A stretch of DNA of 64,000 nucleotides from an uncultured Spirochaetota bacterium (GCA_963734495.1 CAVTHK010000011.1:128001-192000); one strand, 5' to 3'. Counted from the first letter of the stretch, positions 29,399 to 34,285 are shown. Translations and numbers: made by a program. The notes: generated from the letters alone by a model not told the origin.

Positions 29399-30376
29399 CT
29401 ACCCGAACAGCAGCTTGGCCGTCTTGCGCAGCATCGGGATGCCGCGCACCTCGGTGTCCAGCAGCGGGAGGATCGCGCGCACGCTGCCGTCGAAGAGCGT
29501 CTCGATCTGCTTCATGTACCCTTCCTGCATCGCGACGCGGTTCTTCACGAAGTCCGGCGAGTCCGGCCGCACGTCCCTGCGGTCGATCTGCATGTTGACC
29601 ACGACGCCGCCGACGGGGATGCCGAAGTCGTGGAACCAGCGGATGAAGCGCGTGATCACCGCGATGGGCAGCGCCTCCGGGAGCGTGATGAAGAAGAACG
29701 AGGTGAGCTTGCCGTCGGTGAGGAGCACCTTGGCCCGAGCCATCCGCTCGCGCAGGTTCAGCAGGTACTCCATGAGCGGGTCCTTCTGCTGCTTCTTCTT
29801 GCTGTAGGAGAGCAGGTCCTTCAGGGTCATGGCCTCCTCGCGGCTCTTGACCATCTTGTTGACCCACATCGAGTAGACGCCTGACATCCCGAGGAGCCTG
29901 CGCGCGTTGGCCGTCGGCGCCGTGTCGAACACGTACACGTCGTACTTGTTCTCGAACATGAGGTCGATCATGTTCTCGAACATGGCCGACTCCTCGAACG
30001 AAGGGTTCATCGTCGCGCTCTCGACGAACTCGTCGGCCTTGGTCTTGATCTCGGCGTACTTGAGGAACCACTCGATCTTTTCGCGGATCTCGTGCTTGGA
30101 CTTGTTGATGGTCTCGCGCGTGTCGATCTCGTAGGCCTGGAGGTTGGGGACCTCGGGGATGTCGGTCGGCTTGCCGAACACGTCGCGGTCCAGCATCGAG
30201 GAAAGCGAATGCACCGGGTTCGTGGACGCCAGCAGCGTCTTCCTGCCGGCGTCGGCGAACCACAGCGCCGCGGTCCCGGCCAGGACCGTCTTGCCCACCC
30301 CGCCCTTGCCGCCGAAGAAGATGTACTTCAGGCCCGGATGGGCCGCCAGGTACTGGCGCATCGTCTCTGTGATCAT
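29399..30376 (-). CDS. ArsA/Get3-family ATPase, single domain, paralogue B (switch I Asp replaced by Asn)
   Basis: GGKGGVGKT, STNPVHSL, EID, FDTAPTAN, VVVN; no cysteines; ATGA overlap with paralogue A. Confidence 0.9.
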   Translation of the reverse strand: MITETMRQYLAAHPGLKYIFFGGKGGVGKTVLAGTAALWFADAGRKTLLASTNPVHSLSSMLDRDVFGKPTDIPEVPNLQAYEIDTRETINKSKHEIREKIEWFLKYAEIKTKADEFVESATMNPSFEESAMFENMIDLMFENKYDVYVFDTAPTANARRLLGMSGVYSMWVNKMVKSREEAMTLKDLLSYSKKKQQKDPLMEYLLNLRERMARAKVLLTDGKLTSFFFITLPEALPIAVITRFIRWFHDFGIPVGGVVVNMQIDRRDVRPDSPDFVKNRVAMQEGYMKQIETLFDGSVRAILPLLDTEVRGIPMLRKTAKLLFG

Positions 30377-31353
30377 TTTTCGTCTCCAAAGAGGACAGCG
30401 GCCATCCGCTCGATCATGGGCAGTCCCGTGATGTCCGACTCGAACTCCGGCACGTGCGCCCGCACCTCGGAGCCGAACGTCTTTTCGATGGTTTCGAGGT
30501 GCCCCTTCTGCATCTGGAGCCTGTTGCGCAGGTAGTCGGGGATGTTCTGCTGCCCGAGCTCCTTGGGGATCACGCGGTTGACGACGTACCCCGACAGGGG
30601 GACGTTGTACTTCGCAAACAGGCCCGCCGCCTTCTGCGTATCGAGGATGATCATCTGTTCGGGGATCAGGACGAAGAAGAAGGCTGTCTTCTCGCGATTG
30701 GTCAGGATCCCGGAGGACGTGTTGATCCGACGCTTTATGTCCTGGAGCTCGCCGAGGATCTTGTCCTCCTCGCTCTCCTTTTCGTGCTTCATCACCGAGG
30801 CGACCTGGGCGTACTCCTGCATCTCCTCGCGGAGGCCCGTGATCTTGTCGATCCACTCGTCGTACACGGAGGCCATGCTGAGGTAGTAGAGGGCGTGGCC
30901 GAGCGGCACCAGGTCGTAGATGTAGTAGTCGTACTGTCCGCCGACGACGATGTCGACGACGGCGTCGAAGATCGCGCTCTCCTCCATGGCCGGCTCGGCG
31001 GCCGTGGCCTGGATGTAGTTCTCGATCTCCTCGGGGATCGTTTCCATTCCGTACATGGTGCGGATCTTGCCGCGGATCTCTTCCTGGTAGTCCTTGATCC
31101 GCCGGTCCGCGTCGATCTCCTGCGCGAACAGGTTAGGCATCACCTCCACGGGTCCCTTGCCGAAGATGTCGCGCTTGAAGATGTCCGACAGGCTCGCCTG
31201 GGGATCGACGGAGAAGACCAGCACCTTGAAGCCCTGCTTCGCGAGCCAGAAGGCGGTGGTCGCGGAAAAGGTCGTCTTGCCGAGGCCGCCCTTGCCGCCG
31301 AACATGATGTAGCGCCGGTCGGGATACTTCTCGAAAAAAGTTCTCAGGCTCAT
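30373..31353 (-). CDS. ArsA/Get3-family ATPase, single domain, paralogue A
   Basis: GGKGGLGKTT, SVDPQASL, EID, PAMEE, YDLVPLGH, YVVNRV; no cysteines. Confidence 0.9.
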   Translation of the reverse strand: MSLRTFFEKYPDRRYIMFGGKGGLGKTTFSATTAFWLAKQGFKVLVFSVDPQASLSDIFKRDIFGKGPVEVMPNLFAQEIDADRRIKDYQEEIRGKIRTMYGMETIPEEIENYIQATAAEPAMEESAIFDAVVDIVVGGQYDYYIYDLVPLGHALYYLSMASVYDEWIDKITGLREEMQEYAQVASVMKHEKESEEDKILGELQDIKRRINTSSGILTNREKTAFFFVLIPEQMIILDTQKAAGLFAKYNVPLSGYVVNRVIPKELGQQNIPDYLRNRLQMQKGHLETIEKTFGSEVRAHVPEFESDITGLPMIERMAAVLFGDEK

Positions 31354-31407
31354 GAATGCGGCTCCTTGCCCGCAGGGTTGTTCGGTAAACGGCGGCGCCG
31401 CCGCCCC

Positions 31408-31677
31408 CTACGCCAGCGCGTCGGTCAGATCCTTCTCGCGCAGCATGCGCCGCTTCCACGTGGCGATCTGCGGCACAACGTAGGGCAGCAGCCGCAGGCT
31501 GTAGTACGGCGGAAGGATGGGCACGCCCAGCAGGTCGCCCATCGTGATCAGGATGAACAGGTGCTCCATGCTCCCGCGCGTCTTGAGCGCGAAGCGGGCC
31601 ATGTCGTGTCCCGCCATGCCGTAGAGCACGCTCTTGAAGCTCTGGAACAGGCTGCGCTTTTCCTTGTCTTTGGCCAT
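31408..31677 (-). CDS. Small helical protein of the cstA-ArsA operon (resembles cory-CC-star family but lacks the terminal CC)
   Basis: RBS GAGGAG; LFILITMGDLLGVPILPPYYSLRLLPY; clear paralogue of the C-terminus of 31807..32463. Confidence 0.8.
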   Translation of the reverse strand: MAKDKEKRSLFQSFKSVLYGMAGHDMARFALKTRGSMEHLFILITMGDLLGVPILPPYYSLRLLPYVVPQIATWKRRMLREKDLTDALA

Positions 31678-31806
31678 AGATGCTCCTCAAGCTCGAGCGA
31701 CGCCGGGACCGACCCCAACGTCCCGTCTTTCTGCCTGTCCAACTGGCAACAGGCCGTTGTCTTCGCCGCCGCAAAGCGGTTGCGGGCGCCGCGGACGGCG
31801 CCCGGG

Positions 31807-32463
31807 CTAGTGAATCTCCTCCACGAACAGGTCGGTGAGGTCGCGCTCCCGCAGCATGCTGAGCTTCCAGCCCCGGATCGCGGGGATCACGTAGGGCAGG
31901 AGGCGCAGCGTGTAGTACGGAGGCAGGACAGGCACCCCGAGAAAATCGCCGAACACAACCAGCACGAACAGGCGCTCGATCTGGCCGCGCTCCCTCTGGA
32001 GGTCGCGGACCATTTCGTAGACCGTGGCGCCGTAGAGAAAGTCGCGCACGGCCTGCGCGAAACCGCGCCGCCGCTGCGCGACCGGCGCTGCGCCGGCCGC
32101 GGCGAGCGCGCTCTCGAGCGCAGTCTCGAGCGCGTCGCGGTCGGCGCCCGCGAGCGTGCCGACGCCAGGCACCACGAACGACGGGTAGCGGCGCACGCCG
32201 TGACGGAGCGAGAGCCAGAGGCCCGCGAGCGAGCGCGGATCGATCAGCCTGAAACGCACCCGCCCCGACCAGTCCCGCCCCAGCCCTTCGAGCAGGGCCA
32301 CGAGGTCGGCGAGCTCGCCCCTTGCCTGCGGTGGCAGGTCCTCGAGCGAGTCATCCGGCTCGTGGAGAGGCGCGAGCGCCGCCTCCCCCACGAGACAGCG
32401 GGGGCCGCAGAGGCCCCAGCGAGCCGGGATCGGTGTGATCACGTCGACCTGCATCGGCTGCAA
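31807..32463 (-). CDS. Thioredoxin-fold-like domain fused to a second copy of the small helical domain
   Basis: LCGPRC, VRFRLID and GVRRYPSFVV (cis-Pro-like strand), followed by LFVLVVFGDFLGVPVLPPYYTLRLLPY. Confidence 0.7.
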   Translation of the reverse strand: MQPMQVDVITPIPARWGLCGPRCLVGEAALAPLHEPDDSLEDLPPQARGELADLVALLEGLGRDWSGRVRFRLIDPRSLAGLWLSLRHGVRRYPSFVVPGVGTLAGADRDALETALESALAAAGAAPVAQRRRGFAQAVRDFLYGATVYEMVRDLQRERGQIERLFVLVVFGDFLGVPVLPPYYTLRLLPYVIPAIRGWKLSMLRERDLTDLFVEEIH

Positions 32464-32521
32464 GCAATCGCCCTCAAACGGCGGGCGCGCGCCCCTCGGC
32501 TCGCGCCCGACTCTTCTCCGC

Positions 32522-34285
32522 TCAGGCAGCCTTCGCCTGAGGCTCCTGGCCGTAGCGAATGAACGCCTTGCGCGCGTCCCACGCCAGGAACAGGGCGGCG
32601 ATCATGAGGACCAGGCAGATCGCGCCGATGATGACGTTCGCCGCGGTCACCTGGCCGATCGTGAGCTTCTGAGCCTTGGCCAGCGCTTCCGCCTTGGGCA
32701 GGTTCATGAAGAAGCTCTCGTACACCTTGTACAGCAGCGCCCCCATCGTGGTGACGAACATGAAGAGGAAGGGCACCAGCGTCCACCCGTACTTCTTGCC
32801 CTTCGACTTGAGCCACAGTGTCACCAGCAGCAGGGCGAGCGAAGCCATCAGCTGGTTGGCCGCGCCGAAGACGACCCAGATCTGCAGGAACGGAACGAGC
32901 CAGATCAGCACGAGCGTCAGAGCGAGAGCCACGATGGTCCCGACGTGGGTGTTCTTGAACGCGGGCATCTTGTCGCCCAGCGCTTCCGAGCTCGCGACCC
33001 TCATGAAGCGGATGACCAGGTACATGATCGTGAGGGCCATCAGCGTCAGGAACACCGAGCCGTAGGCCATGCCGAAGCCCTTGCCCAGCATGTTGTCGAG
33101 GCCCCACTGGTTCATGAACAACGACAGGCCCTTCGAGAAGACGGCCGCGGCAGCGCCGGCCTGCTTGTACCCCTGGAAGCTCCCGAACGCCGCGGTGGCC
33201 GTGAGGAACGCCACGACCGCGAAGAACATCTCGAAGAACATGGCGCCGCCGCCGACGAACAGCGCGTCGCCTTCCTTCTCGATCTGGCGCGCGGTGCCCG
33301 AAGACGAAACCAGGCTGTGCCAGCCGGAGATGGCGCCGCAGGCGATGGTCACGAAGAGGATGGGCCACAAAGGACCGAGGCCCGCGACCGTGAAGCCGGT
33401 ATACGCCGGGAAGTCGCCCATGCCCGGCCGCCAGATCGCGAGGCCCACCAGGCCGCCGAGGATCCCGAGCGACACGATCCAGAAGGAAACGTAGTTGATC
33501 GGCTGGGCCCAGCGCCAGATCGGCAGGATTGAGCCGATGTAGCAGACGACCACGACCAGCAGGCTGCCGATGAGGCGGGCCTGGTTGACGGCGAGGAACA
33601 TCGTCGGACCCTGCGGCTGCTCCTTGGTCGCGCCGAACACTTTGAGGAAGAAAGCCATCGCGGCCGGTTGCGTCCCGAGCCAGATCGCCACGAACGCCAG
33701 CACCACCGTGACGATCGACGTCAGGATGATGTCGGCCTTCCATTTATAGGTCATCTGTCCGGCGAGCATGCCGACCGCCATCACCAGGATCACGCCGAGG
33801 GGCACGGCCGGGTTGATGAGCAGCCCGAACCCCACCTGGGTCCCGAAGGCTCCCATGATCAGAAGGAGATAGAAGTAGATGAAGGTGACCAGCACGCTGC
33901 GGGAGCGCGGCGACACCAGCCGGTAGCTCAGCGCGCCGAAGCTCTGGCCCTCTTCGCGCACGCCGAGAACGATCGCCGAGTAGTCCTGCACCCATCCAAT
34001 GAAGAACGTGCCGAGAAGGATCCAGAGGAGCGCGGGCACCCAGCCCCACTGGACCGCCACGATGGGTCCGAGGATCGGTCCCAGCGCGGCTATCGACTTG
34101 AACTGGTAGCCGAAGAGCACGTTCCGGTTGGCCGGGGTGAAGTCCACGCCGTCCATGTACATCCTGGCAGGCGTGGCCTTGCGATCGTCCGGCTGGATGA
34201 TCTTGCGGTTGATCGCCCTGGCGTACCCGAAGTAGCCGATCACGATCACCGCAATTCCTATGACGAGAATGACGAGCGAGTTCAA
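32522..34285 (-). CDS. cstA: Carbon starvation protein A family transporter
   Basis: TTG start at 34285 after AGGAGG; TPA..YMDGVDF.P, LFGYQFKSIAALGPILGP, WGWVPALLW, LFVTIACGAISGWHSLVSSSGTARQI, VFGAANQL. Confidence 0.92.
   Translation of the reverse strand: MNSLVILVIGIAVIVIGYFGYARAINRKIIQPDDRKATPARMYMDGVDFTPANRNVLFGYQFKSIAALGPILGPIVAVQWGWVPALLWILLGTFFIGWVQDYSAIVLGVREEGQSFGALSYRLVSPRSRSVLVTFIYFYLLLIMGAFGTQVGFGLLINPAVPLGVILVMAVGMLAGQMTYKWKADIILTSIVTVVLAFVAIWLGTQPAAMAFFLKVFGATKEQPQGPTMFLAVNQARLIGSLLVVVVCYIGSILPIWRWAQPINYVSFWIVSLGILGGLVGLAIWRPGMGDFPAYTGFTVAGLGPLWPILFVTIACGAISGWHSLVSSSGTARQIEKEGDALFVGGGAMFFEMFFAVVAFLTATAAFGSFQGYKQAGAAAAVFSKGLSLFMNQWGLDNMLGKGFGMAYGSVFLTLMALTIMYLVIRFMRVASSEALGDKMPAFKNTHVGTIVALALTLVLIWLVPFLQIWVVFGAANQLMASLALLLVTLWLKSKGKKYGWTLVPFLFMFVTTMGALLYKVYESFFMNLPKAEALAKAQKLTIGQVTAANVIIGAICLVLMIAALFLAWDARKAFIRYGQEPQAKAA

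Follow-up and report, generated by a model that had tools for sequence, protein, structure and literature searches.

A conserved five-gene cassette joins a CstA-family carrier to a pair of Get3/ArsA-type ATPases in an uncultured Spirochaetota bacterium

Two ATPases of the Get3/ArsA family are encoded together with a CstA-family membrane carrier in an uncultured Spirochaetota bacterium; what task joins them? The question is raised by a stretch of 64,000 nucleotides (nt) of one contig (GCA_963734495.1 CAVTHK010000011.1:128001-192000), referred to below as the window, in which open reading frame (ORF) calling places five co-oriented minus-strand ORFs at 29399..34285. In order, these are cstA; a gene for a protein of 215 amino acids (aa), in which a predicted thioredoxin-fold domain is followed by a small DUF7990 domain (the Y-type copy); cstX, which encodes an 89 aa protein consisting of the same small domain (the X-type copy); and the genes for two paralogous ATPases, A and B. 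The intergenic gaps are short (58-67, 129, 54 and -4 nt in order from cstA, the first being 67 nt with the ATG start of the 215 aa protein), and an ATGA forms the overlap of the ATPase A stop and the ATPase B start, as a preliminary description of the locus had held. We read this cassette as a module that controls or assembles CstA in an ATP-dependent manner, and not as an arsenic system.

Do the five genes belong together? A scan of species-representative genomes with an 11-row CstX alignment yielded at least 611 matches, the best 80 of which were kept (loci L003-L082; CstX 78-93% identical), and the cassette parts were counted in these nearest-relative loci by tblastn with the five parts of the window. 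The kept loci belong mostly to Chloroflexota, with a few records of Acidobacteriota, Thermodesulfobacteriota/'Deltaproteobacteria', Myxococcota, Planctomycetota and Spirochaetota. ATPase A is followed by ATPase B in all 69 loci with at least 2.3 kb of downstream sequence, and cstA is present in 60 of the 61 loci with at least 3.2 kb upstream. The five-part order, on whose conservation across taxa the preliminary description had staked its proposal beforehand, is complete in 37 of the 52 loci with both flanks, and cstA, DUF7990 and the two ATPases are kept in a further 14. In 10 of the 52 loci, cstA, CstX, A and B are accompanied by a Y-type copy in which no thioredoxin domain is detectable. 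Altogether, 51 of the two-flank loci have cstA and both ATPases together with one or more DUF7990 genes. Chance falls far short of explaining the arrangement, since related loci show the same gene order again; we take the five genes to be one inherited functional module, and the kept order supports a single functional unit whose task lies outside arsenic. The parts are conserved to different degrees, with median identities to the window of 84% for CstX, 78% for ATPase A, 74% for ATPase B, 66% for CstA, 55% for the Y-type C-terminus and 36% for the thioredoxin domain. CstX, one of the two small proteins, thus stands at the top of the ranking, which is the pattern expected of a hub that touches several partners.

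Some of the related cassettes contain additional genes, for which 36 of the 42 ORFs in the gaps were scanned. In a seven-gene variant, a separate thioredoxin-fold gene (~150 aa) is followed, in this order, by genes for a universal stress protein (Usp), a ferritin-like/rubrerythrin-like protein, the Y-type DUF7990 protein, CstX and the two ATPases; the Usp and ferritin-like pair separates the thioredoxin gene from the Y-type copy in all seven split loci tested, which represent two sub-clades. Elsewhere, the insertions consist of a DUF4258/DUF2283 pair, phospholipase D (PLD)-type and Uma2 nuclease genes, or a gene for a 23S rRNA intervening-sequence protein, and an M4 protease with emfourin may be inserted between ATPases A and B. 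Besides the Usp and ferritin-like genes, the inserted genes are mobile or selfish genes, or a protease pair. The operon, as these unrelated insertions show, tolerates insertions between its genes.

Cassettes of this type have been described before. In 2010, Castillo and Saier reported cstA together with an ArsA homologue in 26 SEED instances; a CstX of about 90 aa was present in 24 of these, and five archaea additionally had a CstY of about 210 aa. According to the accessible text of their paper, ArsA homologues (25-31% identical) can lie next to each other in pairs, CstX paralogues are paired as well, and arsenic genes are found in none of the 26 cstA-linked operons (PMC2963123). The same text reports the co-evolution of CstA, CstX and ArsA homologues, proposes CstX as the linker through which the ArsA homologue energises CstA, and states that CstX is never found without CstA (PMC2963123). 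The window contains everything that defines the cassette of Castillo and Saier, namely cstA, a CstX (~90 aa) that has one hydrophobic stretch, a longer protein (~210 aa) and ArsA homologues consisting of a single domain (~330 aa), in the absence of ars genes, the match being one by description rather than by their CstX and CstY sequences. The preliminary description had put the locus forward as an uncharacterised ATP-coupled CstA system; its notion of one conserved non-arsenic unit has stood, but the idea itself is not new, since it was published as a hypothesis in 2010 (PMC2963123). Both the observation and the core hypothesis are therefore already in the literature, and the window is a further member that adds new details. 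In its accessible text, the 2010 work, which was comparative only, does not contain the thioredoxin fold on the long protein (equated here with CstY by description only), the CstX-like C-terminal domain of that protein, or the fixed Asp/Asn asymmetry of the ATPases described below. New here are the fixed Asn of ATPase B, the conservation rank of CstX, a divergent DUF7990 branch, the seven-gene variant and the rarity of DUF7990 in the phylum of the window. In the open-access literature we found no bench experiments on the cassette and no papers on 'cory-CC-star' or 'DUF7990', and, among the matches listed there for CstX, no relevant paper besides that of 2010.

What kind of ATPases are A and B? 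Both belong to the family PF02374 (228 bits for A and 218 bits for B) and score above the cut-off of 135 bits of TIGR00345, the model of TRC40/GET3/ArsA transport-energising ATPases (221.7 and 202.1 bits, respectively). They are encoded by separate genes as single half-size domains with 34% identity to each other, and do not form the fused halves of an ArsA protein of about 580 aa. Neither contains a single cysteine, in agreement with the preliminary description; orthologues are Cys-free in 63 of 72 cases for A and in 51 of 71 cases for B, and no Cys or metal-binding residue is conserved among the orthologues of either protein. Metalloid-binding cysteines, which we take to be a defining feature of ArsA, are thus missing from both. 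The ArsA-ArsB pump with ArsD does resemble the window, in that a SIMIBI-class ATPase with two related nucleotide-binding units stands beside a secondary carrier and is accompanied by an accessory protein of a thioredoxin-type fold, ArsD having a thioredoxin fold. It differs in that ArsA is one fused protein of ~580 aa, whereas the window has two genes without metalloid-binding cysteines, and in that the carrier is CstA and not ArsB or Acr3. An arsenite or antimonite resistance ATPase system of the ArsAB type, to which similarity at the level of the family points (PF02374, and sub-threshold scores of 94.6 bits for A and 104.2 bits for B with the ArsA equivalog model TIGR04291), is effectively excluded: these scores are far under the ArsA cut-off of 650 bits, the domains are half-size, single and Cys-free, and arsR/B/C/D and acr3 genes, already missed by the preliminary description, are absent from the neighbours annotated in 27-37 kb of the window, just as none was found in the 26 cstA-linked operons of Castillo and Saier (PMC2963123).

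The closest solved chains are those of the archaeal Get3 homologues 3ug6 and 3zq6 (E 2.9e-61 and 7.5e-55 for A; 1.7e-52 and 1.8e-48 for B), followed by E. coli ArsA 1f48 at about 1e-31 and by eukaryotic Get3 at 1e-17 to 1e-30, so that the window ATPases are closer to archaeal Get3-type entries than to ArsA (E 1e-61 versus 1e-31). With 3ug6 and 3zq6 they share length, the P-loop and overall register. ATPase B is aligned with both from end to end, including the helical region in which the alignment with 1f48 stops; in the region of the client groove/TRC40 insert of Get3, the gaps are small. In these alignments, 'astNpvhsl' of B falls on 'vstDpahsl' of 3ug6, 3zq6, 5zme and 1f48, which places an Asn at the Asp of STDP, and 'dtaptANarrl' of B falls on 'dtaptGHtlr' of the top solved structures. 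The motifs ASTNP and FDTAPTAN are found in all 71 orthologues of B, while FSVDP and YDLVPLGH are found in 71 of the 72 orthologues of A; the P-loop (a deviant Walker A, GKGGxGKT) is intact in 71 of 72 and 71 of 71, respectively. Judged from these motifs, A and B have each lost a different part of the canonical switch motifs, in a pattern that is fixed. The switch I Asp is the catalytic base, and its replacement by Asn results in a hydrolysis-deficient, client-trapping form of yeast Get3. Since Asn replaces the catalytic Asp in every orthologue of B, this subunit probably binds ATP but hydrolyses it poorly, and A should be the hydrolytic subunit. The presence of Asn in 71 of 71 B proteins, while A keeps the catalytic Asp, suggests an obligate asymmetric heterodimer.

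Such a pair departs from Get3/TRC40, which has a CxxC zinc motif and forms a homodimer, whereas the window has two Cys-free paralogues, likely to pair with each other, one of them without the catalytic Asp; at the position of the Cys pair of 3ug6, B reads PDFVKN. Moreover, no Get1/2-like receptor is known for the window cassette, the genes of which are encoded with a specific carrier and small proteins. The CxxC motif is also missing from many prokaryotic Get3-like groups according to a Get3 review, the accessible text of which does not mention CstA (PMC6593721), and no link of a carbon starvation protein to Get3 or tail-anchored proteins occurred among the matches listed in the open-access literature. 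Another comparison is offered by BagAB of Mycobacterium tuberculosis (Rv3679/Rv3680), likewise a pair of adjacent paralogous genes for ATPases of the Get3/ArsA fold, with an expected heterodimer and no arsenic link. The relationship is only distant, the models NF053622 and NF053621 giving 29.1-42.7 bits for the window ATPases versus cut-offs of 400 and 521, and the match to 6bs3 (E 8e-6) covering the P-loop only. To our knowledge, BagAB has no cstA or DUF7990 partners.

If the ATPases are neither ArsA nor canonical Get3, what could connect them with CstA? The candidates are the two small domains. Residues 127-208 of the 215 aa protein are paralogous to the 89 aa protein, with 52% identity over 82 residues (E 2e-31), which bears out the small paralogue of the preliminary description. 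The precomputed PF25952 assignment covers all 120 homologues listed for the 89 aa protein as well as P0121, which is identical to the 215 aa protein, and the three best clusters for the 89 aa protein in the protein atlas are 99-100% DUF7990; both window proteins are thus members of this family. It is large: 6330 clusters at 90% identity match the 89 aa protein at E<=1e-3, and 385 are counted at the 50% level. In contrast, the cory-CC-star model NF041419, whose name presumably refers to a C-terminal Cys-Cys, gives 33.9 bits for the 215 aa protein and 33.5 bits for the 89 aa protein versus a cut-off of 80, and the window proteins end in ...EEIH and ...DALA, without a terminal Cys-Cys. The conserved core of the domain, LF.L..FGD.LG.P.LPPYYSLRLLPYVVP.I..WKRR.LRERD.TD, consists of two short hydrophobic stretches split by a Pro-Pro turn. 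It contains an Asp and an Arg that are invariant as well as four prolines that are conserved, and it ends in a charged tail. In CstX, the hydrophobic stretch lies 17-50 residues from the C-terminus and reaches a Kyte-Doolittle maximum of 1.6-1.85 over 19 residues. We read the core, from its sequence, as a likely short hairpin at a membrane or protein interface, and not as a normal transmembrane helix. The mean column identity of CstX over 45 orthologues is 88%.

Other members of the family differ in their tails. His-rich C-terminal tails such as HEHHLHG were observed in the DUF7990 members P0223, P0225, P0233, P0247, P0314 and P0368 and in the second domain of P0195; these tails, and the terminal Cys-Cys after which the Corynebacterium model is named, may be metal-binding. 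The X-type and Y-type copies of the window lack such Cys or His-rich tails.

Residues 1-122 of the 215 aa protein form a beta-alpha-beta-alpha-beta-beta-alpha arrangement in an AlphaFold2 (AF2) model built on an alignment of 23 of 74 matches, with a predicted local distance difference test (pLDDT) value of 80-90, whereas the DUF7990 domain in the same model stays below 50. Thioredoxins fill the top matches of this N-terminal domain both in Foldseek (E about 1e-2, target TM-score (TMt) 0.5-0.7) and in VIA-align (Z 8-8.9, root-mean-square deviation about 2.2 A over 80-86 residues); no ArsD entry is among the matches listed by either search, and the Pfam thioredoxin models do not match the 215 aa protein. 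A CxxC motif is present in 50 of the 52 orthologues of the domain, and a cis-Pro-like motif, RRYP, is conserved. The domain is thereby predicted to have a thioredoxin fold, as the preliminary description had supposed. That description had also thought of redox control, which the system may have; the predicted fold is the one indication of it.

Is DUF7990 dedicated to CstA? Metagenomes scanned with a divergent DUF7990 alignment of six rows, nearer to the Y-type copy, yielded at least 592 relatives, of which 80 were kept (L085-L164). Among the 35 of these loci that are at least 4 kb long, three have the cstA cassette, and neither cstA nor the ATPase pair is found in the available flank of the other 32; the domain therefore needs neither partner in general, and the published statement that CstX never occurs without CstA fails for the wider DUF7990 family. 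The neighbours were inspected in 15 of these 32 loci, chosen for their long flanks (Pfam on 78 of 144 ORFs, in 11 loci, and on 8 further ORFs). FeoB is encoded directly upstream of DUF7990 in 5 of the 15, and metal or Fe-S neighbours are seen in about 10, including an ABC-3 transporter, a CDF/Nitro_FeMo-Co fusion, ZIP, DUF364/DUF4213, NifU, cysteine desulfurase with TusA/DsrE, a CsoR-type repressor and an HMA domain. In L133, the gene for an Mrp/NBP35 ATPase overlaps the end of the DUF7990 gene and is followed by DUF134/Nitro_FeMo-Co and by two MinD-like 4Fe-4S ATPases, and in L152 and L155 a homologue of the thioredoxin domain lies 230 nt downstream of a stand-alone DUF7990 gene. The DUF7990 family thus has a second context, which leans to iron and metals.

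This second context bears on an explanation that does without a role in transport, according to which the thioredoxin-fold domain, DUF7990 and the ATPases form a stress, redox or metal module, holdase or metallochaperone-like, that is merely co-regulated with cstA under starvation. The FeoB and other metal or Fe-S neighbours, the Mrp/NBP35 and MinD-like ATPases of L133, the thioredoxin-domain homologues beside DUF7990 in L152 and L155, the His-rich tails of some family members, the Usp and ferritin-like pair in all seven split cassettes tested and the one cassette lacking an adjacent cstA (L017) are all in line with it. However, cstA is adjacent in 60 of 61 X-type loci, the window proteins have no Cys or His-rich tail and the ATPases no conserved metal-binding residue, and the neighbours in the divergent branch vary, 5 of the 15 loci containing nothing metal-related. 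We regard such a module as fairly improbable.

The layout of CstX and the likeness of the ATPases to Get3 invite a further explanation, in which the groove of the A/B pair would capture the hydrophobic C-terminal region of CstX and CstY and deliver these proteins to the membrane, where they would become subunits of CstA, hydrolysis by A releasing the client and B prolonging its holding. The position of the hydrophobic stretch near the C-terminus of CstX is like that of a tail anchor, the cassette encodes two clients and two ATPases, and the closest solved homologues are 3ug6 and 3zq6, with which B aligns over its whole length. Archaeal proteins of the 3ug6/3zq6 type reportedly bind tail-anchored proteins in vitro. 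The stretch itself, with its four conserved prolines, invariant Asp and Arg and a conserved, strongly charged tail of 16 residues behind it, is nevertheless unlike ordinary tail anchors, and the column identity of CstX is far above what a transmembrane client signal needs. DUF7990 proteins also do without the ATPase pair in 32 of the 35 other loci, which argues that a dedicated chaperone is not generally needed. Bacterial groups of single-domain Get3-like proteins with a hydrophobic groove and without CxxC have been described, as far as the accessible text of the review goes (PMC6593721). On balance, Get3-type targeting appears rather unlikely to be the function of the cassette.

The carrier itself is a clear member of its family, with 392.6 bits (E 4e-117) to PF02554 versus a gathering cut-off of 27, and is distinct from E. 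coli CstA, as the equivalog model NF011590 yields 168.8 bits versus a cut-off of 1188, at 587 aa versus 701 profile positions. It is the only CstA gene in the source assembly (5.38 Mb, 83% complete), in which no match to DUF466 was found. According to the accessible text of the respective study, the small protein YbdD is required for pyruvate uptake by E. coli CstA, so that a small accessory subunit has a precedent in this carrier family (PMC5847655). The pairs CstA-YbdD and BtsT-YjiX of E. coli are like the window in that a small accessory protein is encoded alongside a carrier of the CstA family, and in the case of CstA-YbdD this protein is needed for uptake (PMC5847655, accessible text); they differ in that the accessory protein is of the DUF466/Sel_put type, unrelated to the DUF7990 of the window, and in that the E. 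coli systems have no ATPases.

Taken with the precedent of YbdD, the linkage of the X-type branch to cstA and the ATPase pair, the conservation rank of CstX and the fixed asymmetry of A and B lead us to an adaptor model, in which the DUF7990 proteins sit with CstA at the cytoplasmic face and are bound by the A/B heterodimer, whose ATP cycle drives, gates or assembles the carrier. We hold it tentatively, giving it a little less than an even chance. CstA would be a secondary carrier of the pyruvate/peptide class, and CstX and the Y-type domain its accessory or adaptor subunits, which we infer to be located at the cytoplasmic face of the membrane. ATPases A and B would pair as an asymmetric heterodimer with one competent site, on A. 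The dimer would close and open with ATP, and this movement, passed on through the DUF7990 proteins, would drive, gate or assemble CstA, control thus running from the ATPases to the carrier. The thioredoxin-fold domain could serve as an optional redox or stress input, as could the Usp and the ferritin-like protein in some lineages.

Structure prediction was also applied to the proposed contacts. In a complex prediction of A and B with the Y-type C-terminal domain and with CstX as the partner, based on a 45-row alignment per chain (44 of 61 complete loci plus the window), the interaction prediction score from aligned errors (ipSAE) was 0.00 and 0.01, versus a mark of 0.32, and the pLDDT of the partner was below 50. 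The AF2 model of P0353, a natural in-frame fusion of CstX with ATPase A (78-row alignment), is confident in the ATPase part, and the CstX part has a pLDDT of 26-64. These predictions contain no usable contacts and weigh neither for nor against binding. ArsA-family domains were detected in 8 of the 46 longer DUF7990 matches; seven of these were read, of which two are in frame (P0353 and P0365) and five are frameshift read-throughs, as seen from the out-of-frame junk between their parts. None of the longer matches is fused to CstA. Fusions of the Rosetta-stone kind were rejected as evidence, being too weak, with all clusters consisting of one or two sequences.

Several observations weigh against the adaptor model. 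The homologues of CstA in E. coli are proton symporters that work without any ATPase, and the nearest solved relatives of A and B are, as shown above, archaeal Get3-type entries and not the pump-coupled ArsA. A single DUF7990 gene, in the arrangement cstA, CstX, A and B only, is found in 4 of the 52 two-flank loci, which are of the Syntrophales type, so that the composition of two ATPases and two small domains envisaged in the preliminary description is not universal. In L017, the rest of the cassette is kept with no cstA within 7 kb, and the cstA of that genome is located at the edge of another contig. The thioredoxin motif of the window is CxxxC (CGPRC) and not CxxC, and to these points is added the occurrence of DUF7990 outside cstA cassettes described above.

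A bolder form of the adaptor model takes this last point in. DUF7990 would then be a general membrane-face adaptor that plugs P-loop ATPases (of the Get3/ArsA or Mrp type) and thioredoxin-fold domains onto transporters such as CstA, FeoB and metal carriers; in the cstA cassette, it would turn a proton symporter into an importer that is gated or driven by ATP, with a Get3-like heterodimer of one catalytic and one regulatory site as the engine. We consider this generalisation distinctly unlikely. If true, it would constitute a class of hybrid transporters that has not yet been demonstrated outside ArsAB.

How did the cassette come to this host? DUF7990 was found in 2 of 201 sampled genomes of the phylum of the window, its own included. 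In a quick maximum-likelihood tree of concatenated A and B (73 loci and the window; 7 of the 80 loci lacked two matches of 300 aa or more and are omitted; the midpoint rooting serves the drawing only), the window groups with two Anaerolineaceae records (Shimodaira-Hasegawa-like approximate likelihood ratio test (SH-aLRT) 99), within a clade of 32 rows that otherwise comprises 30 Chloroflexota and one Acidobacteriota. The rarity of DUF7990 in the phylum, together with the nesting of the A+B pair among Anaerolineaceae, suggests that the cassette was acquired laterally as a unit. A tblastn search of a plasmid collection with CstX gave no match.

The features of the window, and loci cited as examples, are collected in the table. 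The TTG start of cstA is preceded by AGGAGG at a distance of 7 nt, and the residues at this start are shared with orthologues, e.g., MNSLF in L007. No terminator-like sites were detected in the three intergenic gaps. A GC-rich hairpin just 3' of the cstA stop (32464-32524, minus strand; -29.9 kcal/mol) is marginal at z -2.15 versus shuffles, and hairpins in the other gaps are indistinguishable from shuffles. The flanking genes, which encode HEAT-repeat and tetratricopeptide repeat (TPR) proteins, UxuA and a Gfo/Idh/MocA oxidoreductase, are unrelated to the cassette. The genome also encodes a third single-domain ArsA/Get3-like ATPase (310 aa, PF02374 276 bits; G000:C10:312539-313471, equivalent to L165:4039-4971, minus strand); its gene comes immediately after one of the MarR family, and no ars, cstA or DUF7990 genes are found nearby.

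Table. Features of the cassette in the window (positions counted from its first nucleotide) and example loci in other genomes
Feature	Position	Strand	Basis or remarks
cstA, 587 aa CstA-family membrane carrier	32522..34285	-	TTG start; PF02554 match; longest ORF extends to 34324
Gene for the 215 aa protein, predicted thioredoxin-fold/DUF7990 fusion (218 aa with TTG start)	31807..32454 (ATG) or ..32463 (TTG, nine bases upstream)	-	
Predicted thioredoxin-fold N-terminal domain, residues 1-122 of the 215 aa protein, motif CGPRC	32089..32454	-	AF2 model and fold searches
Linker and C-terminal DUF7990 (CstX-like) domain of the 215 aa protein, Y-type copy	31810..32088	-	Paralogy to the 89 aa protein; PF25952
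cstX, 89 aa DUF7990 protein, X-type copy	31408..31677	-	PF25952 on homologues
ATPase A, 326 aa, single-domain Get3/ArsA family; GGKGGLGKT, SVDP, DLVPLGH	30373..31353	-	TIGR00345
ATPase B, 325 aa, paralogous Get3/ArsA family; GGKGGVGKT, STNP, DTAPTAN	29399..30376	-	TIGR00345
Split-cassette loci	L007:5346-7273; also L011, L043, L069, L072, L074, L075		
Loci with unrelated insertions	L029:7253-9215, L037:5367-7000, L030:5195-5848, L070:3760-4176, L066:7426-8891		
Example divergent DUF7990 loci	L089:4908-8785, L133:6965-11355, L085:4022-12003		

CstA carriers are widespread, and the only form known so far is a proton symporter that stands alone, with a small protein as its helper. Here, such a carrier is tied to an ATPase pair of the Get3/ArsA type, in a cassette that occurs in at least several hundred species, as each species was represented by a single genome in the scan. 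What bacterial Get3-like ATPases do is largely open, and the cassette offers a compact five-gene test system for it, with a transport read-out, a built-in pair of predicted active and inactive ATPases, and candidate adaptors. Since DUF7990 also occurs next to genes for iron and metal transport, the question is not limited to CstA. For the ATPase family, the cassette could decide whether bacterial Get3-like proteins power carriers in the manner of ArsA or, like Get3, bring small membrane proteins to their target.

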